In this document: positions 2 through 49,004 of the stretch, piece by piece
Position numbering within the stretch: position 1 is the stretch's first letter
Layout: each line of letters begins with the position of its first letter
Origin: Escherichia coli
Lineage (GTDB): Bacteria; Pseudomonadota; Gammaproteobacteria; Enterobacterales; Enterobacteriaceae
DNA length: 64,000 nt
Assembly: GCF_013315695.1 (NCBI RefSeq)
Contig: NZ_CP054353.1
Strand: one strand, 5' to 3'
Position numbers and translations under genes: made by a program
Notes under the pieces: generated by a model
What the model was told of the DNA's origin: nothing
The model's database searches: none
Seen by the model: only the letters and a program-made list of their open reading frames with translations

Positions 2-2362
2 GAGAAAGGCAGCGCTACGGGGATACAGCAGAGTAGCCAGGGCGCGTTGGTGGCAACCACCAGGGCGACGCGGGTCACAGGGACACGCGCTGATGGCGTC
101 GCGTTCAGCATCGAGCAGGATGCGGCGAACAATATCCTGCTGGCAAATGGCGGCGTGTTAACCGTGGAGTCAGACACCACTTCCGCCAAAACACAGGTCA
201 ATGCGGGCGGACGGGAGATCGTCAAAACAAAAGCCACTGCGACTGGCACGATGCTTACCGGCGGTGAACAAATCGTCGAGGGTGTGGCGAATGAGACAAC
301 GATTAACGACGGCGGAATACAAACAGTTTCGGCTAACGGTGAGGCAGTAAAAAAAACGATTAATGAAGGCGGTACGCTGACAGTCAACGATAATGGCAAA
401 GCGACAGATATCATCCAGAACAGCGGTGCCGCTCTCCAGACGAGCACGGCTAACGGTATTGAAATCAGCGGTACTCACCAGTACGGCACCTTTTCCATTG
501 CCGGCAATTTAGCGACCAATATGTTGCTGGAAAATGGCGGTAATTTATTGGTATTAGCAGGTACCGAAGCCCGTGACTCCAAGGTTGGCAAGGGTGGTGC
601 AATGCAAAACCTGGGTCAGGACTCCGCCACAAAGGTTAACTCTGGCGGGCAATATACCCTTGGGCGGTCAAAAGATGAGTTTCAGGCTCTGGCCCGGGCA
701 GAAGATCTCCAGGTCGCTGGCGGGACGGCAATCGTCTATGCAGGTACGCTGGCGGATGCATCGGTCAGTGGCGCGACAGGAAGCCTGTCGTTAATGACGC
801 CACGGGATAATGTTACGCCAGTTAAACTCGAAGGGGCGATCCGGATTACCGATAGCGCGACATTAACTATCGGAAATGGCGTCGATACGACGCTTACCGA
901 CCTGACGGCTGCCAGCCGGGGCAGTGTCTGGCTTAACAGCAATAATTCCTGTGCAGGTACCAGCAACTGCGAATATAGAGTAAACAGTTTGCTCCTCAAC
1001 GACGGTGATGTTTATTTATCAGCACAAACAGCAGCGCCTGCCACAACTAACGGTATCTACAATACGCTGACAACCAGTGAACTTTCCGGCAGCGGTAATT
1101 TCTACCTGCATACCAACGTTGCAGGCTCCCGGGGCGATCAACTGGTCGTCAACAACAACGCCACTGGTAATTTTAAAATCTTTGTTCAGGATACCGGCGT
1201 CAGCCCTCAGTCTGACGACGCGATGACGCTGGTGAAAACAGGGGGAGGGGATGCTTCGTTTACGCTGGGTAATACCGGCGGTTTCGTTGATCTTGGGACC
1301 TATGAGTATGTCCTGAAAAGCGACGGCAACAGCAACTGGAACCTGACCAATGATGTCAAACCCAACCCGGACCCCAACCCAAATCCGAAGCCGGATCCGA
1401 AACCAGACCCGACTCCCGATCCAACGCCGACACCCGTCCCGGAGAAACGCATCACGCCTTCTACGGCAGCCGTACTCAATATGGCAGCAACATTACCGTT
1501 GGTCTTTGATGCTGAGCTAAACAGTATTCGCGAGCGGTTGAACATAATGAAAGCGAGTCCACACAACAATAATGTCTGGGGGACGACGTATAACACCCGT
1601 AATAATGTCACCACCGATGCGGGTGCCGGGTTTGAGCAGACGCTGACCGGAATGACGGTGGGGATCGATAGCCGTAATGATATTCCTGAGGGGATTGCGA
1701 CTCTGGGCGCTTTTATGGGTTATTCCCATTCACATATCGGTTTTGATCGTGGAGGACATGGCAGTGTGGGCAGTTATTCTCTGGGGGGCTATGCCAGCTG
1801 GGAACATGAAAGTGGTTTCTATCTGGACGGTATCGTGAAGCTGAACCGCTTTGAAAGTAACGTAGCCGGTAAAATGAGCAGCGGTGGAGCCGCCAACGGC
1901 AGTTATCGCAGCAACGGGCTGGGCGGTCACATTGAAACCGGGATGCGATTTACCGATGGTAACTGGAACCTGACGCCGTATGCATCGTTAACGGGGTTCA
2001 CCGCTGATAACCCCGAATATCATTTATCCAATGGCATGGAATCGAAATCAGTCGATACCCGCAGTATATATCGTGAACTGGGCGCAACGCTGAGTTACAA
2101 CATGCGTCTGGGGAACGGCATGGAAGTTGAGCCGTGGCTGAAGGCGGCTGTGCGCAAAGAATTTGTCGATGATAACCGGGTGAAAGTGAATAATGACGGT
2201 AATTTTGTCAATGATTTGTCGGGCAGACGTGGAATATACCAGGCAGGTATTAAAGCCTCATTCAGCAGTTCGTTAAGCGGGAATCTCGGGGTGGGGTATA
2301 GCCATGGTGCCGGTGTGGAATCCCCGTGGAACGCAGTGGCTGGTGTGAACTGGTCGTTCTGA
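2..2362 (+). CDS. Autotransporter adhesin, C-terminal portion (passenger repeats, Pro/Asp/Asn-rich linker, beta-barrel translocator); 5' end lies outside the window
   Basis: Frame is open from the window edge (no stop between 2 and 47); PNPDPNPNPKPDPKPDPTPDPTPTP linker; C-terminal beta-domain ending ...VNWSF as in type Va autotransporters; position resembles ypjA next to CP4-57 in E. coli K-12. Confidence 0.8.
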   Translation, partial: EKGSATGIQQSSQGALVATTRATRVTGTRADGVAFSIEQDAANNILLANGGVLTVESDTTSAKTQVNAGGREIVKTKATATGTMLTGGEQIVEGVANETTINDGGIQTVSANGEAVKKTINEGGTLTVNDNGKATDIIQNSGAALQTSTANGIEISGTHQYGTFSIAGNLATNMLLENGGNLLVLAGTEARDSKVGKGGAMQNLGQDSATKVNSGGQYTLGRSKDEFQALARAEDLQVAGGTAIVYAGTLADASVSGATGSLSLMTPRDNVTPVKLEGAIRITDSATLTIGNGVDTTLTDLTAASRGSVWLNSNNSCAGTSNCEYRVNSLLLNDGDVYLSAQTAAPATTNGIYNTLTTSELSGSGNFYLHTNVAGSRGDQLVVNNNATGNFKIFVQDTGVSPQSDDAMTLVKTGGGDASFTLGNTGGFVDLGTYEYVLKSDGNSNWNLTNDVKPNPDPNPNPKPDPKPDPTPDPTPTPVPEKRITPSTAAVLNMAATLPLVFDAELNSIRERLNIMKASPHNNNVWGTTYNTRNNVTTDAGAGFEQTLTGMTVGIDSRNDIPEGIATLGAFMGYSHSHIGFDRGGHGSVGSYSLGGYASWEHESGFYLDGIVKLNRFESNVAGKMSSGGAANGSYRSNGLGGHIETGMRFTDGNWNLTPYASLTGFTADNPEYHLSNGMESKSVDTRSIYRELGATLSYNMRLGNGMEVEPWLKAAVRKEFVDDNRVKVNNDGNFVNDLSGRRGIYQAGIKASFSSSLSGNLGVGYSHGAGVESPWNAVAGVNWSF

Positions 2363-2397: not shown

Positions 2398-2671
2398 TAT
2401 CACCAGGAGCCGCGGCTCCTTTGCGTATCCTTTTTTGTCTCCTCACCGTCTGGTCGGTGTCCTGCTGAGACTGCTAACTTCCTGTTTTTATTGGTGTTGT
2501 CCTTACACCGTCCAATCATGATTGGCTGGCGGAGTTTGAATAAATATTGTATTACTTTGATTTTTAATGATTTTGTTTGATTCAGTTTTTGTGCGTATAC
2601 CTAATCGTATACCAATGGCTGTAAGTTAATGTGAAATGAAAGCGCATTTTTACTTGGATTGATGCTATATC

Positions 2672-2990
2672 GTACAGGAAAAAAATTTTTTTTCGAAAGA
2701 ACTGTTCACACTGTTCACCTTTCTTTTTTCTCCTTTTATTTCATAGTGATAGGTGGTGAATAATGGGTGAAGGGTGAACATTCGATTCTTCACCTCCGGC
2801 ATTCTGCCGGTGTGACTTGTGCAGGGGATTAATTTCCCGTGCTGAAATCACACCGGAAGAAAAAAGTTTTTTTTGATTTGATTGTTCACACTGTTCACCT
2901 TTCGTTTTTCTCTTTTAATTTCAGTGTGATAACGGGTGAATATACGGTGAAGGGTGAACAGTGGATTGTTCACCTTCGGGGGATTCAGGG
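2672..2990. repeat. crr-like region: two ~120-bp direct repeats each carrying several TGTTCACC/GGTGAACA octamer iterons
   Basis: Units at about 2701-2810 and 2881-2990 are near-identical (ctgttcacactgttcaccttt...ggtgaa...gggtgaaca...ttcacc), each preceded by an A/T-run; sits just downstream of the alpha gene as P4 crr does. Confidence 0.75.
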
Positions 2991-2995
2991 ATAAA

Positions 2996-3024
2996 AAAAG
3001 ACCGGCAGATGCCGGTCAGATGAG
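2996..3024 (-). terminator. Rho-independent terminator downstream of the alpha gene
   Basis: gaccggca/tgccggtc hairpin followed by a T-run on the minus strand, immediately after the alpha stop. Confidence 0.5.
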
Positions 3025-3033
3025 TCATGATGG

Positions 3034-5367
3034 TCAGGTTGTTGCAGGGTCGTCACATTTTGGCAGCCAGTCGCCGTAGCTTTCCTCTTTCAGCGTCAGG
3101 TTGGTCTGTATCCCCTGTTTGGTATGGCGCTTCTCGTAATTCAGTCCGTATTCCTTCAGCATCACCGGCAGCCCCAGCCCGAACATTTTCAGACTGAGTA
3201 CATTCCGGTAGCCGTTTGCCTCCATGTAGGCCAGATAGGCGTGATAGAGGTATTTACGGTAATTACGCGGGATGATACTGGCGTTCCCCATATACATGCC
3301 GCTGGTCTGCAGCAGGGTTTCCAGATAGCCGATAAAATCAAACGTCGGGTCGGCATCCCGTTTGATGTTCAGTGCCTCGTCTGAGTTCTGCTGGGACTGA
3401 AGCAGTGACCGGGCGAGCATCGGGTCGCTGAACTTCTGCATCAGGTGACGCACGATGACCGCCAGCTCGCGGGTGATTTTGTCCTTAAGCTGCGGGTCGC
3501 GCTCCTGCGGGGCTATCTGTTCCGGGAAGTGAATAATCACCCGCCGGCGTGACACGCCGCCGCTGCGGTCGGTGAAGCGCATCGGGTTATTGTTCACGGC
3601 CAGAATCACCGCCGGGATGTGCGTGGAGTACGCATCCCGGTATTTCGGGTCAACGGACACTGCATCGCCGCCGGTGATGGCCTTGAGTCCGGCTCCGTCG
3701 CCGCTCCATTTTTCCTGGTCCGGCAGGCGTATCAGTGAGAAGCCAGTTAACGCGGCACGTTCACGCGGGGATTCCAGCGTCTCGATGGTGGCCGACGTGG
3801 CGTTATCCTCACCGGCCAGCAGGGTGGCGATTTCGGCCATGATACTTTTGCCGCTGCCGCCGGGACCGGTCACCTCCAGAAAGAGCTGCCAGTCGTAGCG
3901 GTTTGCCAGCACCATAAACAGTGCGGCCAGAATCACGTCGCGTTTTTCCGCACGGCCACCGGCGGCACGGTCAAGCCAGCGCCAGAACGCGGGGGCGTGG
4001 GTCTCCAGCGTTTCACCGTCCACCGGCGGGGTGAAATCCACATCGCACAGGGTGCGCATCCAGTGTGACGGACTGTGCGGATGGAACGTGCCGTTCTGCG
4101 TGTCGAGCACGCCGTTACGAAAGCCAATCAGGCGGCGGGAGGGGGCTTCCTGCTGCGGAATAATCAGTTTCAGGGTGTCCACCACGGAGGCCACCTTCCC
4201 GGAGGAGAACGGCGCGCGCAGACGCTGAAACAGCCCGGCCACATCCCGGGCAAAGTCCTGTGGCGGCAGCACCTTCCAGACACCATTTTCATAGCGGGAC
4301 AGAAGCTGGCCGTTGGCATCGACCGCGAGCGCCTCGCCGTAATGCTCATAGATACGCATGGCCTTTTCGCTGGTACTCATGGCGGAAAACTCTGCTTCGC
4401 TCATGGTGTCGAACGGGCTTTCAGCCGGTGGCCGGATGGCATCGTAAATGGCCTTACGGGTGGCCTCCCCGCCGTACTGCGTGAAGGCATCATTCCAGTC
4501 ACCGAAGACCGGCGGCAGGGCAACAACGCCCTCACACGCATCTGCGGCTGCGGCGGCTTTTTTCTGGCCGTCACCGCTGAGGTCACGGTCTGCGGCAAGG
4601 ACAATCTGACAGGCCGGATGCTTCTGCCGGGCAAGGCTGGCCAGAGAAAGGAGGTTCACGGAAGAAAGCGCCACCATCACCGTTTCACCGGTCAGGTGAT
4701 GCACGGTAAGTGCGGTCGCGTATCCCTCCGCTATCCACAGACGTTTTCCGGCCTGATTCTGTCCTTCAAGGGTGTGACAGGTGCCCCTGACCTGTCCGCC
4801 TTTCAGGGTGCGCTTACGGCCGTCAGCACTGATTAACTGAAGGTTAACCAGTTCGCCGCTGTCGTCATACAGTGGCACCACAAGGTCACCGGCGCGCCAG
4901 CTCACGCCACCGGCTCTGTGTGTGCCGGTCAGCATCCGGCATTCCCGGCCGGGAAAGCCCTTGCGGGTCAGGTAGGCGTTACCGGTTCCGGGACGGGTTT
5001 TTGCCATCAGGGTTTGTGCCAGTGCGGCGGCGTTCTTCCGGGCAGCGTCTGTTTCAGCAACGGCGGCGGCCGTCACTGCCGGGTCAGCCGGGGGCAGGCT
5101 GCCGGTCACGGCAGCCACCTTTGCGGCCGCGTCGGACGGAGAGACACCAAACACCTTTCCAACCAGTTTCAGGCCGTCACCGGCACCACACTGATTGCAG
5201 TACCAGGTGCCGCGCCCCTCCCTGTCATCAAAACGGAAGCGGTCACTCCCGCCACAGACCGGACAGGGCTGATGACGGTTTTTCAGCACCTGAATCCCCA
5301 GCGCCGGGAGAATACGCGGCCAGTGGCCGAGCGCATGGCTGACGGTGGCGGTTACGTTCATTTTCAT
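3034..5367 (-). CDS. P4 alpha-type bifunctional primase/helicase (777 aa)
   Basis: N-terminal zinc-binding motif CPVCGG...YCNQCG, central primase region, C-terminal P-loop helicase (GPGGSGKS); size and position match P4 alpha. Confidence 0.9.
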   Translation of the reverse strand: MKMNVTATVSHALGHWPRILPALGIQVLKNRHQPCPVCGGSDRFRFDDREGRGTWYCNQCGAGDGLKLVGKVFGVSPSDAAAKVAAVTGSLPPADPAVTAAAVAETDAARKNAAALAQTLMAKTRPGTGNAYLTRKGFPGRECRMLTGTHRAGGVSWRAGDLVVPLYDDSGELVNLQLISADGRKRTLKGGQVRGTCHTLEGQNQAGKRLWIAEGYATALTVHHLTGETVMVALSSVNLLSLASLARQKHPACQIVLAADRDLSGDGQKKAAAAADACEGVVALPPVFGDWNDAFTQYGGEATRKAIYDAIRPPAESPFDTMSEAEFSAMSTSEKAMRIYEHYGEALAVDANGQLLSRYENGVWKVLPPQDFARDVAGLFQRLRAPFSSGKVASVVDTLKLIIPQQEAPSRRLIGFRNGVLDTQNGTFHPHSPSHWMRTLCDVDFTPPVDGETLETHAPAFWRWLDRAAGGRAEKRDVILAALFMVLANRYDWQLFLEVTGPGGSGKSIMAEIATLLAGEDNATSATIETLESPRERAALTGFSLIRLPDQEKWSGDGAGLKAITGGDAVSVDPKYRDAYSTHIPAVILAVNNNPMRFTDRSGGVSRRRVIIHFPEQIAPQERDPQLKDKITRELAVIVRHLMQKFSDPMLARSLLQSQQNSDEALNIKRDADPTFDFIGYLETLLQTSGMYMGNASIIPRNYRKYLYHAYLAYMEANGYRNVLSLKMFGLGLPVMLKEYGLNYEKRHTKQGIQTNLTLKEESYGDWLPKCDDPATT

Positions 5368-5381
5368 GGTGTTGTTCTCCT

Positions 5382-5702
5382 TCAGTGCAGTACCGGCGCT
5401 TTTATGTGACGGGCACAGAGTTCATCCATCACAACCAGCCCGAGAAAGGACAGCGACGGCGCGGCCTTCAGGGGGCCGGATTCCATTAAATCTTCCAGCA
5501 GGGCACAGGCTATCTGACGCCCTTTTTCCTCACCGTGCTGGCGCAGATAAAAGCCTTCCAGCTCAGCGGCGATGGCCGCCTCCAGTGACTCAAGGGTGAG
5601 ATGCGGGTAGCGGTGCTGACGTTCGCACACGGTCAGCCAGGCACAGGCGACAGCGCGACGGTAAAGGGCAGCACGTAAGACGGGCGGTAAGGGTGTTTTC
5701 AT
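5382..5702 (-). CDS. Hypothetical protein, 106 aa (P4 orf106-like position)
   Basis: ORF in operon orientation directly upstream of alpha; no recognisable motif. Confidence 0.5.
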
Positions 5703-5837
5703 TTGTTTTCCTCCCTGTGACAGATGACTGCATTCCGTGCCGGTTGCATTAACTGATAAGGCATATCTGCGTCTCCTGAAGACGTGCGTATCCCTGCGCG
5801 AATACGCACATTTAATTTTTCGGGTGTCGTTTTTTAA

Positions 5838-6293
5838 TTACAGATAATTGCGGTAACTGTTATCCGGGGTGATTTCCGGGTCAGGCTCCGTGCGGGGAAT
5901 TTCCCGCCATTCCCGCGCCACCGGTGCCGCCCGGCTGACCGGAACAGGGGCCTGCGGGTAAATATCCAGATATTTCTCCCGCCATTTCTGTAATTCCGGG
6001 TCTCCGGCCATTTCTTTCAGTACCGCATGCCGGTTTACGGGGCTGCGTTTAAACAGGTCAGGACGGTCACAGGTAAATTCCCGCAGAAAACGCCCCAGCG
6101 GGATGTCTGTGGTGCGCCCGTCAGCGAGGATACGCACAAGGATACTGAATTTACGGCGGTACGGGTTCCAGACAATGTCCGGGCAGCGGTACGGCATTTC
6201 CCACGGAATACCGTCTTCCAGAATGCCGACCACGGCCACATCGGGAAAACCGGCAGAACGGTAAATCTCACCGGGCTGGGGAAAATCAAACAT
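5838..6293 (-). CDS. Hypothetical protein, 151 aa (P4 orf151-like position)
   Basis: ORF co-oriented with alpha operon; size matches a P4 early-operon ORF. Confidence 0.5.
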   Translation of the reverse strand: MFDFPQPGEIYRSAGFPDVAVVGILEDGIPWEMPYRCPDIVWNPYRRKFSILVRILADGRTTDIPLGRFLREFTCDRPDLFKRSPVNRHAVLKEMAGDPELQKWREKYLDIYPQAPVPVSRAAPVAREWREIPRTEPDPEITPDNSYRNYL

Positions 6294-6573
6294 GCGTCTT
6301 GTCTCCCCGGTCTTTCTGCTGGGCGAGAAAATCGCGGCACAGGCCTTTGGCTTTCAGCTCATTCAGCACAAAATCAATATCTTCATTCAGGTAGCTGAAA
6401 ATATGCGGAATGTAGAGCTGATGCAGGCCGGAGAGTTCACGGTGAATCAAATCACCCCCAACAAACTGGGATACGGCGCTGGCGCGGTTGAGCTTATGGT
6501 AAGCCTCAATGCTGAGGTGTTCACGGGCGTCATGACGCGCTGAGACGGTCTGAGGGGCTTTTTTATTACGCAC
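6286..6573 (-). CDS. Hypothetical small protein, 95 aa with proposed GTG start (possible epsilon-like)
   Basis: GTG at 6571-6573 (rc) preceded by GGTGGAGG; ATG-initiated versions of this ORF have N-termini that look non-coding. Confidence 0.35.
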
Positions 6574-6763
6574 GGGACACCTCCACCACCGGCAGACGGG
6601 CAGCAAGGGAGAGCACATAGTCACGGACAAGGGAACGGCGGGCACTGCGTTCATCACCGGCGACGGTGCGAAGCATGCAGATACGGGGATGACGGTCTGC
6701 GCGACGGACAGCCGCAAACACAAAGACAAATTCAGGGTGTGAAGGGGTAAGGGTTGTAGCCAT
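6566..6763 (-). CDS. Hypothetical small protein, 65 aa
   Basis: ATG at 6761-6763 (rc) with GGAGG 9 nt upstream; C-terminal part of a longer ORF-track frame. Confidence 0.3.
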
Positions 6764-7161
6764 GATGGCAGCCTCCGTTAGATAGCAGGTTACGCTATCG
6801 CCGGAGTTTCCACGCTCGATGGCGATAGCCCAGACGGGGGTGGAAATACCGGCTCTAACGGATACCGGCCAGCCCGGAGGCTGCCCCGCCTGAGCTACCA
6901 TTGACTCTGCGGCATAATGAGCGGACGCGGGCAGGATGCACGGAGTTCCATCTGCTCGACTGACCACACACCACACCATAATCTGGCGCTCTGTGGCGTT
7001 GATTGCGACACAAAAAAAGACGCATGGCGCGTCATATGTCGCCGTTAGATTGCTCGGGTTTCCACGCCCGGCTGCCGATTTTGCGACAGCGGAAAAACTA
7101 TATCCGCAAATGCCGGAAAAAGGCAAGCCAGAAAAAGGGACTTTTTGCAGAACAGGCATCA

Positions 7162-7428
7162 TCATGCGTCGTACCCCCGTTTGCGTCCGGCAATGCGGCC
7201 GGCCATCCATGCGGTGACTTCAGAGTGCAGCCAGGCCACATTTTTACCGCCAAGACTCACCTGCGGCGGAAATTCCCCCTTACGGATGAGTTCGTAGATG
7301 GTCGAGCGTGACAGGCCGCACAGGTGCATCACTTCCGGAAGACGTAAAAAACGCTCCTGTGTGATGTCCGGCAGCGGCATCAGTGGCGTCACAGGGGCGG
7401 GAGACGGGGAAGAAAAAACAGCTTGCAT
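7162..7428 (-). CDS. AlpA/Vis-family transcriptional regulator (88 aa)
   Basis: Conserved AlpA-type HTH region (LRLPEV...[17 protein letters not shown]); same length as P4 Vis. Confidence 0.8.
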
Positions 7429-7706
7429 CGGGCTACCTCGTTAATGTCCATACAGCACCGGATAAGTCCGTCCGGCTTCGGGTAGCGCTTTATTTTGTGA
7501 ATATTTTCGGCAGACGCAACAGGGGGGATTTGTTCCGGCAGCCTTACAATGGCTGTGCATTTTTTGTACATCAGCGCCAGATAGCTTTAAAACGCTCTGG
7601 AAGGAGCTGGAAAAAATTATAGTGAAATACAAATTGTTTTTTCTTATTTATTTCAGTGAATTAATAAAAATAAAAAGTAATAAACAGCACAAAAAGCCCA
7701 TCAACG

Positions 7707-7811
7707 GGTGAACAGTGGTGAACAGACGGTGAACAGTCATTACTGCGATTGTTCACCCTTTAACTTACTGTATTACTTATCTTTTTTCTTATTGTGAACA
7801 GAGGTGAACAG
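7707..7811. repeat. ori-like iteron cluster (six GGTGAACA/TGTTCACC octamers)
   Basis: gggtgaacagtggtgaacagacggtgaacag ... gattgttcaccc ... ttgtgaacagaggtgaacag between the Vis-like gene and sid; same octamer as the crr-like repeats. Confidence 0.65.
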
Positions 7812-7980
7812 TAAAATATAAAAAAAACAAACAGTAAGCCGGTTTTTCCTGCGACCTTTTCCTGGCTTGCCGGTCGGAGGATGAGTCTCCTGTGTCAGGG
7901 CTGGCACATCTGCAATGCGTCGTGTTGTTGTCCGGTGTACGTCACAATTTTCTTAACCTGAAGTGACGAGGAACCGGAAA

Positions 7981-8715
7981 ATGTCTGACAACACCATCCC
8001 TGAATATCTGCAACCCGCGCTGGCACAACTGGAAAAGGCCAGAGCCGCCCATCTTGAGAACGCCCGCCTGATGGATGAGACCGTCACGGCCATTGAACGG
8101 GCAGAGCAGGAAAAAAATGCGCTGGCGCAGGCCGACGGAAACGACGCTGACGACTGGCGCACGGCCTTTCGTGCAGCCGGTGGTGTCCTGAGCGATGAGC
8201 TGAAACAGCGCCACATTGAGCGCGTGGCACGCCGGGAGCTGGTACAGGAATATGACAATCTGGCCGTGGTGCTGAATTTTGAACGCGAACGCCTGAAAGG
8301 GGCGTGTGACAGCACGGCCACCGCCTACCGGAAGGCACATCATCACCTTCTGAGTCTGTATGCAGAGCATGAGCTGGAACACGCCCTGAATGAAACCTGT
8401 GAGGCGCTTGTCCGGGCAATGCATCTGAGCATCCTGGTACAGGAAAATCCGCTCGCCAACACCACCGGCCATCAGGGCTACATCTCACCGGAAAAGGCTG
8501 TCATGCAGCAGGTGAAATCATCGCTGGAACAGAAAATAAAACAGATGCAAATCAGCCTCAGCGGTGAGCCGGTTCTCCGGCTGGCCGGACTGTCAGCGGC
8601 AACACTCCCGCACATGGATTATGAGGTGGCAGGCACACCGGCGCAGCGCAAGGTGTGGCAGGACAAAATAGACCAGCAGGGAGCAGAGCTGAAGGCCAGA
8701 GGACTGCTGTCATGA
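7981..8715 (+). CDS. sid: Sid-like capsid size-determination (external scaffold) protein, 244 aa
   Basis: Position first in the sid-delta-psu block; length equals P4 Sid; stop overlaps the delta start (ATGA). Confidence 0.6.
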   Translation: MSDNTIPEYLQPALAQLEKARAAHLENARLMDETVTAIERAEQEKNALAQADGNDADDWRTAFRAAGGVLSDELKQRHIERVARRELVQEYDNLAVVLNFERERLKGACDSTATAYRKAHHHLLSLYAEHELEHALNETCEALVRAMHLSILVQENPLANTTGHQGYISPEKAVMQQVKSSLEQKIKQMQISLSGEPVLRLAGLSAATLPHMDYEVAGTPAQRKVWQDKIDQQGAELKARGLLS

Positions 8716-9212
8716 TTTACTGCCCGTCGTGTGGACATGTTGCTCACACCCGCCGCGCACATTTCATGGACGATGGCACCAAGATAATGATTGCACAGTG
8801 CCGGAATATTTATTGCTCTGCGACATTTGAAGCGAGTGAAAGCTTTTTCTCTGACAGTAAAGATTCAGGAATGGAATACATTTCAGGCAAACAGAGATAC
8901 CGCGATTCACTGACTTCTGCCTCCGGCAGTATGAAACGCCCGAAAAGAATGCTTGTGACCGGATATTGTTGTCGGAGATGTAAAGGCCTTGCACTGTCAA
9001 GAACATCGAGGCGTCTGTCTCAGGAAGTCACCGAGCGTTTTTATGTGTGCACGGAGCCGGGTTGTGGTCTGGTGTTTAAAACGCTTCAGACCATCAACCG
9101 CTTCATTGTTCGCCCGGTCACGCCGGACGAACTGGCAGAAAGCCTGCATGAAAAACAGGAACTGCCGCCAGTACGGTTAAAAACACAATCATATTCGCTG
9201 CGTCTGGAATGA
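8712..9212 (+). CDS. delta: Delta late-gene activator (tandem Ogr-like zinc fingers), 166 aa
   Basis: Two Ogr-type Cys motifs (CPSCGHVAHTRR...C..C and a second CxxC...C block); length equals P4 Delta. Confidence 0.8.
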   Translation: MIYCPSCGHVAHTRRAHFMDDGTKIMIAQCRNIYCSATFEASESFFSDSKDSGMEYISGKQRYRDSLTSASGSMKRPKRMLVTGYCCRRCKGLALSRTSRRLSQEVTERFYVCTEPGCGLVFKTLQTINRFIVRPVTPDELAESLHEKQELPPVRLKTQSYSLRLE

Positions 9213-9285
9213 GGGCTGCCGGTTAACCCCGGCCGTCGCCGCACACCGTATTTTTATTCTTCAGCATGATGAGAAAGAGATAACG

Positions 9286-9858
9286 ATGGAAAGCACAGCC
9301 TTACAGCAGGCCTTTGACACCTGTCAGAATAACAAAGCAGCATGGCTGCAACGCAAAAATGAGCTGGCTGCGGCCGAACAGGAATATCTGCGGCTTCTGT
9401 CAGGAGAAGGCAGAAACGTCAGTCGCCTGGACGAATTACGCAATATTATCGAAGTCAGAAAATGGCAGGTGAATCAGGCCGCCGGTCGTTATATTCGTTC
9501 GCATGAAGCCGTTCAGCACATCAGCATCCGCGACCGGCTGAATGATTTTATGCTGCAGCACGGCACAGCACTGGCGGCCGCACTGGCACCGGAGCTGATG
9601 GGCTACAGTGAGCTGACGGCCATTGCCCGAAACTGTGCCATACAGCGTGCCACAGATGCCCTGCGTGAAGCCCTCCTGTCCTGGCTTGCGAAGGGTGAAA
9701 AAATTAATTATTCCGCACAGGATAGCGACATTTTAACGACCATCGGATTCAGGCCTGACGCGGCTTCGGTGGATGACAGCCGTGAAAAATTCACCCCTGC
9801 GCAGAACATGATTTTTTCGCGTAAAAGTGCGCAACTGGCATCACGTCAGTCTGTGTAA
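9286..9858 (+). CDS. psu: Psu-like polarity-suppression / capsid decoration protein, 190 aa
   Basis: Position after delta and length equal to P4 Psu. Confidence 0.65.
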   Translation: MESTALQQAFDTCQNNKAAWLQRKNELAAAEQEYLRLLSGEGRNVSRLDELRNIIEVRKWQVNQAAGRYIRSHEAVQHISIRDRLNDFMLQHGTALAAALAPELMGYSELTAIARNCAIQRATDALREALLSWLAKGEKINYSAQDSDILTTIGFRPDAASVDDSREKFTPAQNMIFSRKSAQLASRQSV

Positions 9859-10021
9859 AACTCCCCGAAAATCCGCCCGTTTTACTGAAAAAAGCCATGC
9901 ATCGATAAGGTGCATGGCTTTGCATGCGTTTTCCTGCCTCATTTTCTGTAAACCGTGCCATTCCCGGCGCGGTCTGAGCGTGTCAGTACAACTGCATTAA
10001 AACCGCCCCGCAAAGCGGGCG

Positions 10022-10040
10022 GGCGAGGCGGGGAAAGCAC
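10022..10040. other. cos site (cohesive end) of the P4-like element
   Basis: ggcgaggcggggaaagcac matches the P2/P4-family cohesive-end sequence as I recall it; located after psu as in P4. Confidence 0.6.
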
Positions 10041-10074
10041 TGCGCGCAGTATAAGAATTAAATAGGTATGGATT

Positions 10075-12033
10075 TTAAAATCCATCAAGTAGCTGATTGA
10101 TACCATTGCTCTCATCACAATTTATTTGCTCTAACTCAAATAAAGCACTGTCGTACTTTATTTGGGGAGTGTTTTCAAATGACAATAAAGATTCGATTAG
10201 TCTTATTTCTTTATCTTTATTTATGTCTTTAAGTGAGTCTAAAGTTAAATTGAATTTAACTTCGGGTTGTTTTCCTACTTCCATCATGATATTTGACTCC
10301 AACTCTGGATCAGTATTGAAGAATCGATGTGTCTTATGGAAATAACTAGGTTTTCTTGATTTTAAAATACTTAGTATATCCGACTTGATAGTGCTTTCCC
10401 GTGCTATCACAAGCCAATGGTTGGCAACCCCTGTGATGGTGGTAATGATGTGGGAGCCATTTTCACTTAGTTCATTAAAGGCTCTTAAGTCACCCTTGAA
10501 AAAATCATTTAGCAACTCATTTTCTTTATCTTTATCAAAAAGGTAAATTATTGAATTGCCGGCTAATGATATTTCAGCCTTGGTTTTTATAGTATCGCAA
10601 TTAAATTGCGCGGTCTCATTTTTTAATTCTTCGTAAGATGATTTTAAGTCTAAAAGCAAGCATTTTATTATACTTGATCTGAAAGATGAGTAATCAATAT
10701 CAGCACAAAGTGAAAATAAATTTCTGTGACGAATGGATTCAGGGCTGTAATATAGCTTTGTTAATATTTCTTTTTGGCGTTCTTTTGTGTCACGACAGAT
10801 AAACATAGCTGCAAAATATTCCATTAATGATTTGTGTGACCAACGAATAATAGCGCCTTCTTTGACAAATAATGGAACGGTTTCAATTAAGTCCTGAATA
10901 AAAAGAGATGGTGAAGTTGATATTCCGGGAATTTTTGAAATGATATTTTGCAATGTTATTTGCAGATCGTCTTTCGTAAACTCAATTTTACCTCCGTCTT
11001 TCAAACACCAAAAACCTAATCTCCTTAAGACCTGATGGAAGTCAGTGGAGTCTAGCTTAGAAAATTTTTCTCTAACATAACCAAGTTCTTTAGTTAAATC
11101 ATGAGACTCATACAAAGCGTCAAATACTTGGCTATAAAATAACTCTCTTTTTCTTGGTATTATCGGTTTGAATTTATATGCACAAAATAATAATGAAACA
11201 TAAAGAGGTGTGGATAAAAATTCATTTAGATTATGACCATTCTCCAGTCGTAATCCTTTAATTAATTGAGATGAAATAGGGCCACGTCCATCATATCGAC
11301 GTAATAGATCATACGCTTGATTCGTTTCTAATGGGTTGATTTTAAATCTTGAGAAACCATGTAGTTCTGATAAGAAATTATCATGACGAGAAGTTATAAT
11401 TATTTTGCTTTCTGAGAAATTATTAGCAAAGGTACTTAGTAAATTTACGATCTTGGATTTGAGTTGTTGTGGGATTTCATCTATGCCATCGAAAAGATAA
11501 ATAAAAGGGATTTTTTTGAGGCAGTTGTCTGAAATGTCTTCTCCTAAACCAAGTTGATGTTTCACCTGTAGCGCAAAATCATAATCTTTAGCACGTCGTA
11601 ATTCAATGTATATTGGAATGTATTCCTTATTAGCGATGCAATCTAAAGCAATTCTTTTCATTAGGGTGGACTTACCCATTCCTGCTGAGTCAGTGATTAA
11701 TATATGATTGAAATTATCTAATAAATCTGCATTGTCTTTTATTAGGCATGTGTATGGTTTTTTTTCATTATCGTAATAAATGCTCATTGGCTCATAAATA
11801 TCTAGAAGCTCTACTGGAGTATTTTGAAAAGCTAAGGTATTCACAAGGGAGCATTGCCCTTTCACATTTGATAGGAAACGTTCAAGATTTTTATTCAAGA
11901 AGCGTGCTGCATGTACATCTATTAAATAATTACGAACACTACTTTCTATGATAGGTAATATTTTATTCTTAATAACCTCCTTTGCCCATGGAAGGGATGC
12001 AGAGACTAATACATCAAGAGATACTGGTTGCAT
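10075..12033 (-). CDS. NACHT-type STAND NTPase (652 aa), candidate anti-phage protein in the P4 cargo slot
   Basis: Walker A GMGKST and NACHT-type Walker B LFDGIDE; long C-terminal helical region; strongly AT-rich versus flanks; sits between cos/psu and int. Confidence 0.75.
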   Translation of the reverse strand: MQPVSLDVLVSASLPWAKEVIKNKILPIIESSVRNYLIDVHAARFLNKNLERFLSNVKGQCSLVNTLAFQNTPVELLDIYEPMSIYYDNEKKPYTCLIKDNADLLDNFNHILITDSAGMGKSTLMKRIALDCIANKEYIPIYIELRRAKDYDFALQVKHQLGLGEDISDNCLKKIPFIYLFDGIDEIPQQLKSKIVNLLSTFANNFSESKIIITSRHDNFLSELHGFSRFKINPLETNQAYDLLRRYDGRGPISSQLIKGLRLENGHNLNEFLSTPLYVSLLFCAYKFKPIIPRKRELFYSQVFDALYESHDLTKELGYVREKFSKLDSTDFHQVLRRLGFWCLKDGGKIEFTKDDLQITLQNIISKIPGISTSPSLFIQDLIETVPLFVKEGAIIRWSHKSLMEYFAAMFICRDTKERQKEILTKLYYSPESIRHRNLFSLCADIDYSSFRSSIIKCLLLDLKSSYEELKNETAQFNCDTIKTKAEISLAGNSIIYLFDKDKENELLNDFFKGDLRAFNELSENGSHIITTITGVANHWLVIARESTIKSDILSILKSRKPSYFHKTHRFFNTDPELESNIMMEVGKQPEVKFNLTLDSLKDINKDKEIRLIESLLSFENTPQIKYDSALFELEQINCDESNGINQLLDGF

Positions 12034-13245: not shown

Positions 13246-13366
13246 TGTGGCCGCTCCTTCATTAATTGGTATACGCGTTTAGGTAAACATCCTACCGTAT
13301 ACCTAAACGTATACCAATAATCACTGGATTTAGCTGGATATCCTCGGACAACGGTAGACACAAAAA

Positions 13367-13429: not shown

Positions 13430-13474
13430 TGGTGGAGCTGGCGGGAGTTGAACCCGCGTCCGAAATTCCTACAT
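13430..13474. repeat. Internal att core: 45-bp copy of the ssrA 3' end (junction between P4-like element and P2-like prophage)
   Basis: tggtggagctggcgggagttgaacccgcgtccgaaattcctacat is identical to 48642-48686. Confidence 0.9.
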
Positions 13475-14254: not shown

Positions 14255-15271
14255 TTAAATTAAGTTATAAAGAGGGTTTTTTGTTACTGCATCCTCCAGG
14301 TGGTCTGGAGAGAAGTGTGCATAAATCATCGTCATTTTAATATCTGAGTGCCCTAAAATATCACGTAAAACGAGTATGTTCCCACCGTTCATCATAAAAT
14401 GGCTGGCAAATGTATGGCGCAGGACGTGGGTGCATTGGCCTTCCGGTAGTTCAATACCGGCCCGTTTTACCGCCCGTTCAAAGGCTTTTCTGCATGGTGT
14501 GAATAATTTCCCTCGGTTTTTGGGTAGCTCGTTGTACAGATCCTGAGATATCGGTACGGTACGGTTTTTTTTACCCTTGGTCTTTGTATAGGTAATCCGG
14601 TATTTCGATAGTTGATGGCCCTGCAGGTTTTCAGCTTCACTCCAACGAGCACCGGTTGCTAGGCATATTTTTGCAATCATTAGCAGACTGGGGCTTTGAG
14701 AATCAGCACAGGCATCCAGCAGACGTTTAATTTCCTCCGGGGTTAGGAACGCCAGTTCACCCTCCGTAATTTTAAATGTTGGAAGCCCGGCAAGCGGGTT
14801 GGGGGCTGACCAGTGGCCCAGCTTTTTCAGTGTACCAAAAACAGATGATAGGTTGCGCTGTTCAAGGTTTACCGTGCGGGGCTTAACGGGTGACATGAAC
14901 GAGCCGTCTTCATTTTGGACCTCCCCCTTTAATCTGGCTTCCCGATATTTTGTGAAATCACCTGCTGTCAGCTCAGAGGCGATGGGATCGCCTAGACCAT
15001 TACAGATAATTCTAAGTTTCGCCATCAGGCGTTTGGGGTCTGCGAGTGTTTGACCATATAGGGAATACCACTGCTCAATCACTTCTGATAATCGCCGCCG
15101 ATCTTCCTTCTCACCAAGCCATGGCTTTTTGTTTACTTCGTTCATGGTGAAGTTTTCGAATGCTATGGCTTCGCCTTTCGTGGCAAATTGCTTACGCACG
15201 CGCTTGCCATTGCGTCCATTGGGATAGCACTCACACAACCATTTTCCGTTCGGCTGTTTTCTGATGGTCAT
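14255..15271 (-). CDS. int: P2-type tyrosine integrase (338 aa)
   Basis: Catalytic region motifs (...ARWSE...HVLRHTFASHF...LGHSDIKMTMIYAH); position next to att and repressor. Confidence 0.9.
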   Translation of the reverse strand: MTIRKQPNGKWLCECYPNGRNGKRVRKQFATKGEAIAFENFTMNEVNKKPWLGEKEDRRRLSEVIEQWYSLYGQTLADPKRLMAKLRIICNGLGDPIASELTAGDFTKYREARLKGEVQNEDGSFMSPVKPRTVNLEQRNLSSVFGTLKKLGHWSAPNPLAGLPTFKITEGELAFLTPEEIKRLLDACADSQSPSLLMIAKICLATGARWSEAENLQGHQLSKYRITYTKTKGKKNRTVPISQDLYNELPKNRGKLFTPCRKAFERAVKRAGIELPEGQCTHVLRHTFASHFMMNGGNILVLRDILGHSDIKMTMIYAHFSPDHLEDAVTKNPLYNLI

Positions 15272-15272
15272 A

Positions 15273-15905
15273 TCAAAGGCTCTTAATGATTTTCAGTGCA
15301 CGGCCTACTACCTCAATGTCATCCAGGCCACACTCAAACGATGAATCATCCTGATGCACTACTAATCTGTTTCCCGGGAGTCGAGTCAATTTAACAATGC
15401 TTTTTATCCCGTCGATATCGACTAACCACATACCATTCACTGGTGGTGTTTGGTTGCGATCTATTAAATAAGAATCACCAGAAGTAGTCACCAGCAGTAG
15501 GTTGCTTGAGTCTGAGGGGAGTATGCTGCTATCAATGATTGCTTTTCCAGCATCGACCAATAAACCACCGTTGAGAGTCGCCTTGTCAATTTCAGGAGAT
15601 ACTAGTTCAGAAAGAGGTACAACCTTGCTGGAGTTCACGGAATTGATATTTTTTTTAGGTTCAATGTTTGGACCTGGCTCCCCCTGTCCGGTGGTTAGCC
15701 ACAGTAAAGAAACTCCTGTTTCCAAGGCGCACTGAATCACCCACTCTGCAGGAAAACTATCTCTTAAGTATCTGTTTGCCATGGTGCTTTTTGATGCGCC
15801 TAAGTGATCGCAAAGTTGCTGTCTGGACTTGAAATCATAGGCTGCCATTAGTCTATGGATAGCTTCTCTTCCCCCTGTATTCTCTCCAGCCTTTACCTGT
15901 ATCAT
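15273..15905 (-). CDS. CI-type immunity repressor (210 aa, HTH N-terminus)
   Basis: Divergent from the apl/cox-like gene, adjacent to int; size closer to phage 186 CI than P2 C. Confidence 0.7.
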   Translation of the reverse strand: MIQVKAGENTGGREAIHRLMAAYDFKSRQQLCDHLGASKSTMANRYLRDSFPAEWVIQCALETGVSLLWLTTGQGEPGPNIEPKKNINSVNSSKVVPLSELVSPEIDKATLNGGLLVDAGKAIIDSSILPSDSSNLLLVTTSGDSYLIDRNQTPPVNGMWLVDIDGIKSIVKLTRLPGNRLVVHQDDSSFECGLDDIEVVGRALKIIKSL

Positions 15906-46810: not shown

Positions 46811-47029
46811 ATGATGAATTGTCCAAAGTGTGGTCATGCGGCGCACACAAGGAGCAGTTTTCAAGTAACGGAAAGCACCAAAGAACGTTACTGCCAGTGC
46901 CAAAATATTAACTGCGGGAGCACTTTTGTTACCCATGAAACAGTGGTCCGGTTTATTGTGACACCTGCAGTGATTGCCACAGCCCCTCCACATCCATTGC
47001 CAGATGGTCAGGGCCATATGAATTTTTAA
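46811..47029 (+). CDS. ogr: Ogr late-gene transcriptional activator (zinc finger, 72 aa)
   Basis: MMNCPKCGHAAHTRSS...CQCQNINC... matches P2 Ogr. Confidence 0.85.
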   Translation: MMNCPKCGHAAHTRSSFQVTESTKERYCQCQNINCGSTFVTHETVVRFIVTPAVIATAPPHPLPDGQGHMNF

Positions 47030-48641: not shown

Positions 48642-48686
48642 TGGTGGAGCTGGCGGGAGTTGAACCCGCGTCCGAAATTCCTACAT
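48642..48686. repeat. attR core: 3' end of ssrA, identical to 13430-13474
   Basis: 45-bp exact direct repeat. Confidence 0.9.
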
Positions 48687-49004
48687 CCTCGGTACTACAT
48701 GCTTAGTCAGTCTTTACATTCGCTTGCCAGCTGCGGACGGACACGCCACTAACAAACTAGCCTGATTAAGTTTTAACGCTTCAACCCCAGGCAGGGCTTC
48801 CACGCGATCTCTTTTGGGTTTGACCTCTCTTGATCCCCGTCCTAAGAGCGGAGGCTAGGGAGAGAGGGCTCTAAGCAGGTTATTAAGCTGCTAAAGCGTA
48901 GTTTTCGTCGTTTGCGACTATTTTTTGCGGCTTTTTACGAGGCCAACCGCCCCTCGGCATGCACCTTGGGTTTCGCAAATCCCGTCGAATCCAGAATCAG
49001 CCCC
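48642..49004 (-). ncRNA. ssrA: tmRNA (SsrA RNA), 363 nt
   Basis: Reverse complement begins GGGGCTGATTCTGGATTCGACGGG and ends GGGTTCAACTCCCGCCAGCTCCACCA; tag ORF region (GCAAACGACGAAAACTACGCTTTAGCAGCTTAA) present. Confidence 0.97.

Follow-up and report, generated by a model that had tools for sequence, protein, structure and literature searches.

Two octamer clusters in an Escherichia coli chromosome that very probably form the ori and crr of a P4-like satellite prophage at ssrA

Two octamer clusters in the window

The stretch of Escherichia coli DNA that we analyse here is 64,000 nucleotides (nts) long (NCBI RefSeq assembly GCF_013315695.1, contig NZ_CP054353.1), and we refer to the whole of it as the window. 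It includes an element of approximately 10.9 kb, at about 2.53-13.43 kb of the window, integrated at the 3' end of the ssrA gene. Within this element there are two clusters of the octamer TGTTCACC/GGTGAACA, found in both orientations, which we annotate by comparison with the satellite phage P4 as a putative cis replication region (crr) and a putative origin of replication (ori). The features of the two sites, using the P4 names and with the P4 coordinates to which they align, are:

2680-2979, plus strand: crr, formed by two 120-bp direct repeats and a 60-bp spacer; aligns with P4 (X51522) 4291-4590
2680-2799, plus strand: crr direct repeat 1, which begins with A7T8 (2680-2694); 2/120 differences from P4 4291-4410
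2703-2710 (+), 2712-2719 (+), 2755-2762 (-), 2773-2780 (-), 2787-2794 (+): octamers of crr repeat 1, all five identical to P4
2800-2859: crr spacer, 60 bp; 13/60 differences from P4
2860-2979, plus strand: crr direct repeat 2, which begins with A6GT8 (from 2860); 0/120 differences from P4 4471-4590
2883-2890 (+), 2892-2899 (+), 2935-2942 (-), 2953-2960 (-), 2967-2974 (+): octamers of crr repeat 2, identical to P4
2993-3017, minus strand: rho-independent terminator of the alpha transcript (t-alpha), identical to P4 4604-4628
7574-7603: site of the three 10-bp "ori type 2 repeats" of P4 (P4 9176-9205), not conserved in the window element
7617-7700: A+T segment beside the ori iterons, with an A+T fraction of 0.80 versus 0.50 for the whole window; aligns with P4 from 9219, within the annotated rep_origin
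7707-7810: ori type I iteron cluster with six octamers; aligns with P4 9310-9413, annotated as six copies of "ori type 1 repeat", of which five are identical
7707-7714 (-), 7717-7724 (-), 7728-7735 (-), 7750-7757 (+), 7793-7800 (-, TGTTCACA), 7803-7810 (-): octamers of ori

Exact copies of the octamer number 11 in the 64-kb window where 2.2 are expected, and 0/100 shuffles get to 11. Ten of the 11 are inside the two clusters, five in 2712-2974 and another five in 7707-7810. If one mismatch is allowed, the clusters contain 10 octamers (2703-2974) and 6 octamers (7707-7810), for which a one-mismatch background of about 52 sites per 64 kb predicts approximately 0.2 and 0.1, respectively. These counts bear out a first-pass annotation of this DNA, made from the sequence alone, which claimed octamers in both orientations in the crr repeats and a second octamer cluster at 7707-7811. 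That annotation described six octamers at the second location, and there are indeed six sites, although five of them are exact and one (7793-7800, TGTTCACA) is a 7/8 variant. The first three octamers in ori are spaced by 10-11 bp, which places them on the same face of the helix. The only TGTTCACC outside the clusters, at 263-270, is within the ypjA/ehaD reading frame and is compatible with chance.

A repeat search finds one direct-repeat family in the window, with units of 120 nts at 2680-2799 and 2860-2979, separated by 180 bp from start to start and with 82% identity to each other. The boundaries given in the first-pass annotation (2701-2810 and 2881-2990) have to be corrected, as the true units begin approximately 20 bp further left, at 2680 and 2860. 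The two repeats had also been called near-identical, but their actual mutual identity is the 82% just given, which is the same value as in P4 itself. The A/T runs reported to precede the repeats do exist; they are not ahead of the repeats, however, but constitute the first 15-16 bases of the units as defined in P4 (A7T8 and A6GT8).

Homology to phage P4

Using megablast, positions 2680-10021 of the window align with P4 X51522 4291-11624 as a single collinear piece with 97.4% identity, and the collinearity runs on to position 10048 via P4 1-27. In a distant blastn search against 50,697 phage records, phage P4 is the sole match to both sites. For 2600-3050, the match has 94.3-94.5% identity and covers the P4 features "crr (cis required region for replication)", two "crr 120bp direct repeat", ten "ori type 1 repeat", and the alpha terminator. 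For 7560-7900, the match has 94.4-94.7% identity and covers the features "origin of DNA replication" and six "ori type 1 repeat". We then carried over all P4 GenBank features at the level of individual bases through pairwise alignments. Of the annotated P4 type I octamers, 15/16 are identical in the window. All ten in crr match the P4 annotated sites exactly, and the remaining one, in ori, has a single change, such that 7793-7800 reads TGTTCACA where P4 has TGTTCACC. P4 annotates TGTTCACA twice in its own crr. The separation between crr and ori is approximately 4.9 kb, equal to that in P4. The first-pass annotation had named an alignment with P4 ori and crr as one of its tests, and in that alignment both sites pair with their P4 counterparts.

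The arrangement of the sites is also that of P4 (X51522 / NC_001609; X05623; X02534). In both, two 120-bp repeats flank a 60-bp spacer on the downstream side of the alpha terminator, each crr repeat has five type I octamers at matching positions and orientations, and the region from vis to sid contains six more. The 4.9-kb site separation is shared, the ori iteron block is near-identical, and the alpha and Cnr proteins are 99% and 100% identical, respectively. The differences between P4 and the window element are the 13 changes in the crr spacer, the one TGTTCACA octamer in ori, the replacement of the three type 2 repeats, an unrelated sequence on the attachment site (att) side to the left of crr, an integrase gene (int) whose product is only 37% identical, and the exchange of gop-beta-cII for a NACHT gene.

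The spacer is the fast-changing part of crr, with 13/60 differences versus 2/240 in the repeats, and it is also variable in other E. coli copies. It contains an imperfect inverted repeat of 27 nts (2802-2828 / 2835-2861) that is 81% complementary. Judged by eye, the pairing of this hairpin looks better than that of the P4 equivalent.

An origin of the octamers by chance or composition, or a role as sites for a protein with no part in replication (a transcription factor at the vis/sid promoters, for instance), would agree with the location of the ori cluster in the divergent vis-sid promoter region. The P4 late promoters are regulated in the vis-sid region. The same octamer, however, appears 4.9 kb away in a region without promoters downstream of the alpha terminator, both sites are orthologous to the P4-annotated origin and crr, and none of the 100 shuffles reaches the observed octamer count. 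We consider this explanation extremely improbable as a whole, and its chance component is ruled out by the shuffle statistics. From the homology to P4, the two clusters very probably represent ori (ori1) and crr, and the element that carries them a P4-like satellite prophage integrated in E. coli at the ssrA 3' end.

Replication proteins and satellite core

The genes next to the two sites, and the cohesive-end site (cos) of the element, are:

3034-5367, minus strand: alpha, primase, SF3 helicase and origin-binding protein of 777 aa; 770/776 identical to P4 alpha
5382-5702, minus strand: cnr (ORF106), beside alpha; 106/106 identical to P4 ORF106
7162-7428, minus strand: vis (ORF88), left neighbour of ori; 98.9% identical to P4 ORF88
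7981-8715, plus strand: sid, to the right of ori; 98% identity with P4 Sid
9997-10048: cos junction, where the P4 right end is joined to the left end; the last 25 bp of P4 are exact at 9997-10021, and P4 1-27 correspond to 10022-10048

The placement of the clusters relative to these genes is as the first-pass annotation had described it. The crr repeats are downstream of the alpha gene, beyond both its 3' end and its terminator, and the second cluster is between the Vis-like gene and sid. The alpha protein includes the Pfam domains Zn_Ribbon_Prim, Toprim_3, D5_N, DUF5906 and Pox_D5, and its residues 671-770 are identical in 99/100 positions to the solved origin-binding domain PDB 1KA8. We take cnr to be the copy-number regulator of P4 replication, as established in the P4 literature.

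A tblastn search with all P4 proteins also identifies ORF151 (98%), epsilon (98%), the old "cI ORF137" (94%), delta (98%) and psu (99%). The core genes are all full length, with 94-100% identity and no frameshifts. The cos cohesive-end sequence is conserved at the 10021/10022 junction, and a P2-type terminase should thus be able to use the site, judging from sequence. The claim of an intact satellite replicon thus finds support in the sites, the full-length alpha, Cnr, the core genes and cos, as far as these can be judged from sequence. In the immunity region, Rfam finds a C4 antisense RNA at 6818-6905 (minus strand), as the immunity RNA, and an isrK RNA at 7013-7090 (minus strand). Both matches are located where old P4 records annotate a "cI" protein open reading frame. 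The C4 antisense RNA family presumably includes the P4 CI immunity RNA.

The core genes int, psu, delta, sid, alpA/vis, epsilon and alpha are co-localised in P4 order, as in the definition of P4-like satellites in PMC8628076. The P4-like satellites of Enterobacterales (PMC8628076, PMC9122126) have the same seven core components in the same canonical order and share with the element a cargo hotspot between psu/cos and int, as well as an integrase exchanged relative to P4; no notable difference separates the element from them.

Prevalence and constraint among E. coli genomes

The ori/crr replicon is already known; it hardly differs from that of the type phage and is found very frequently in E. 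coli. In 5426 complete E. coli genomes, we find crr in 1077 and ori in 1006, chromosomal in every case, such that roughly a fifth of the sequenced E. coli strains carry a prophage of this kind. Copies of ori and of crr that are 100% identical to those in the window occur in other E. coli genomes.

For an analysis of constraint, we chose copies across the range of identities and aligned them (8 elements for ori), with GF3-3 (ori) and NCTC9041 (crr) as the diverged ones. The octamer columns are invariant in 46/48 cases for ori and 76/80 for crr. For the other columns, the values are 219/433 and 125/220, respectively (Fisher p ~6e-11 for ori and ~1e-11 for crr). In GF3-3 and NCTC9041, flanks and spacers are heavily substituted, whereas the octamers, the octamer spacing and the poly-A/poly-T runs are kept. 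Octamers that remain constant amid diverged flanks are expected from selection on alpha-binding sites, and they argue against mere recent common ancestry.

In other genomes, the RefSeq annotation at crr and ori consists either of short coding sequences (CDSs) over crr repeat 1, named "integrase" or "hypothetical protein", or of nothing. CDSs across crr repeat 1 are found in the records of E. coli T309.Ta3 and of O157:H7 MB9-1. These CDSs are probably spurious calls on a non-coding replication site.

The type 2 repeat segment

The main departure from P4 next to the ori iterons is at the type 2 repeats, which in P4 read CCACTTAAAG/TCATTTAAAG/CCACTTAAAG and in the window are the unrelated GCGCCAGATA/GCTTTAAAAC/GCTCTGGAAG. 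Among the 5426 complete genomes of E. coli, 372 have the window allele of this segment and 439 have the P4 allele. Given 372 genomes with the window allele, replacement of the type 2 repeats is a common natural state. With a third allele, found in FORC064 and 2009C_3689, there are at least three. The polymorphism occupies a discrete cassette of approximately 45 bp at 7566-7620 (P4 9168-9222), and the adjoining type I cluster is invariant in all alleles. By eye, all alleles seem to retain A-rich motifs at a spacing of approximately 10 bp. Because the segment is polymorphic while the type I cluster is constant, the family does not have the type 2 repeats as a conserved requirement and is unlikely to be defined by them; the sequence comparison suggests that they are dispensable. 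We know of no shown function of the type 2 repeats. The cassette may set specificity or regulation, in the form of origin firing, control of the late promoters or satellite incompatibility, a speculation to which we give little credence. The A+T stretch at 7617-7700, on the other side of which are the iterons, is a candidate unwinding region.

Integration site, cargo and neighbouring prophage

The features at the two ends of the element are:

2519-2541: left (alpha-side) junction, with part of the ssrA 3' end in degenerate form; aligned to the empty ypjA-ssrA site of EC17GD31
10075-12033, minus strand: NACHT + SNaCT5 STAND NTPase of 652 aa
12037-13245, minus strand: tyrosine integrase, not of the P4 type, with Pfam domains Arm-DNA-bind_3, Phage_int_M and Phage_integrase; 36.6% identical to P4 Int
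13430-13474: junction on the right (int side), where 45 bp of the ssrA 3' end are copied; exact repeat of 48642-48686
48642-49004, minus strand: intact ssrA

The window has no tRNA gene, which rules out a tRNA site like the one used by P4 (leuX); the site is ssrA. In strain AF3, the same element is found between ypjA and ssrA, with int at 185 bp from ssrA and an IS1 between the NACHT gene and int. In the window, positions 47-2362 (plus strand) encode the ypjA/ehaD autotransporter adhesin, of which the start of the window leaves the C-terminal part. A search of the two ends of the element for an att core in the form of a clean direct repeat yielded no more than a degenerate match at the left end. 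The left junction reads GATTG-GCTGGCGGAGTTTGAA, and the empty site of EC17GD31 reads GATTGGTGGAGCTGGCGGGAGTTGAA.

Derivatives of K-12 match the window at 2363-2541, and the left junction may be shared with CP4-57, judging from this match. We take CP4-57 to be a cryptic P4-like prophage of E. coli K-12 at ssrA. Like the window element, it is located between ssrA and ypjA, and the distal junction sequence is seemingly common to both. To our knowledge, CP4-57 is without the P4 replication and capsid-hijacking core, of which the window element has the complete set.

Similarity to P4 has abrupt limits, at position 2680 where crr begins on the left and at 10048, 27 bp beyond cos, and the sequence to the left of crr in other E. 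coli elements is either of the P4 type or of the window type. These sharp edges and the two types of left flank are compatible with an att/int module that is swapped as a unit. Direct copies of CGTATACCTAA(T/A)CGTATACCAAT are found near both ends of the element, at 2594-2616 and 13296-13318, with an inverted relative near 13270-13290. An arm-type binding site for the integrase is a plausible role for these sequences.

The NACHT gene replaces P4 gop-beta-cII between psu/cos and int, and is probably an anti-phage cargo. A PADLOC v2.0.0 search with the NACHT cargo protein produced no match. Its position is that of a variable cargo hotspot in P4-like satellites (Moura de Sousa & Rocha 2021, PMC8628076; Rousset et al. 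2022, PMC9122126).

A P2-family prophage of approximately 35 kb, at 13475-48641, is located between the satellite int and ssrA, and as a later insertion it splits the element from ssrA. It is flanked by the 45-bp duplication of the ssrA 3' end (13430-13474 and 48642-48686). Its genes include int (14255-15271), a 186-type CI (15273-15905) and an ogr-like gene (46811-46966), 95% identical to Klebsiella phage Kp4849-2. Satellite and candidate helper are thus arranged in tandem, head-to-tail, at one site. It is conceivable that in situ replication driven by alpha could co-amplify the neighbouring candidate helper, a scenario that we regard as having only a slight chance of being correct.

Several observations weigh against the assignment of the two clusters to a P4-type ori and crr. 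One of the ori octamers has a G-to-T change, and the three "type 2" ori repeats of P4 are replaced by unrelated sequence. Of the six differences between this alpha and that of P4, one, P686L, falls inside the DNA-binding winged-helix domain (1KA8), and five are outside of it. In addition, the left att junction is 5 nts shorter than the product of a simple reciprocal exchange, and the element is a chromosomal prophage. Given the chromosomal state and the short left att, excision, and hence any use of the replicon, is open to question.

The sites could also be true homologues of P4 ori and crr in a prophage that is domesticated or cryptic, with a replicon out of use that is kept by recent ancestry or because of some other role of the element, such as that of a defence gene, rather than by selection for replication. 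The element is chromosomal with an irregular left junction, a second prophage now separates it from ssrA, the NACHT cargo gene could be the selected trait, and the ssrA site also houses in K-12 what we take to be the cryptic P4-like CP4-57. In contrast, the core genes are all full length at 94-100% identity and without frameshifts, cos and the integrase are intact, and the octamers are invariant where the flanks go down to ~50-57% invariant columns, which points to ongoing purifying selection on the sites. On balance, we regard a disused replicon as unlikely, and we favor the assignment of the two clusters to the ori and crr of a satellite whose replication module appears to be in working order.

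Proposed mechanism and implications

As both the sites and the proteins are near-identical to those of P4, we infer for the window element the P4 mechanism. Our description of it is based on the GenBank annotation of X51522/X05623, on secondary mentions in PMC2777425 and PMC8628076, and on the established biology of P4. When the satellite is derepressed, or when it enters the cell as a plasmid, the C-terminal winged-helix domain of alpha would bind the TGTTCACC iterons at both ori and crr. By analogy with P4, the two sites, 4.9 kb apart, would both be required in cis, and looping and origin firing at ori/crr may follow. The SF3 helicase and the Toprim primase of alpha would open and prime the DNA at ori, beside the 80% A+T stretch. 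Bidirectional theta replication would then start from ori, with no need of the host initiator, helicase or primase, and Cnr would act on alpha such that the copy number is limited.

The iteron origins of plasmids (R6K, pSC101, P1 oriR) likewise have short repeats, a winged-helix initiator encoded by the element, an A+T-rich neighbour and a distant second cluster. Unlike in those origins, the P4 initiator is its own helicase and primase. The distant cluster of P4, crr, is needed for initiation, while in iteron plasmids the distant cluster is a negative control locus only.

Beyond annotation, the finding has little weight. It says that a complete P4-type satellite, with a functional-looking replication module, is present in the window, and the element can be called a probably mobile satellite rather than a remnant. 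It also draws attention to two functional non-coding regions for which RefSeq has no annotation or, in some genomes, spurious CDSs. Finally, the natural variation among E. coli elements lends the classical P4 model a small measure of confirmation, as the octamers are constant and both the crr spacer and the type 2 segment are free to vary.

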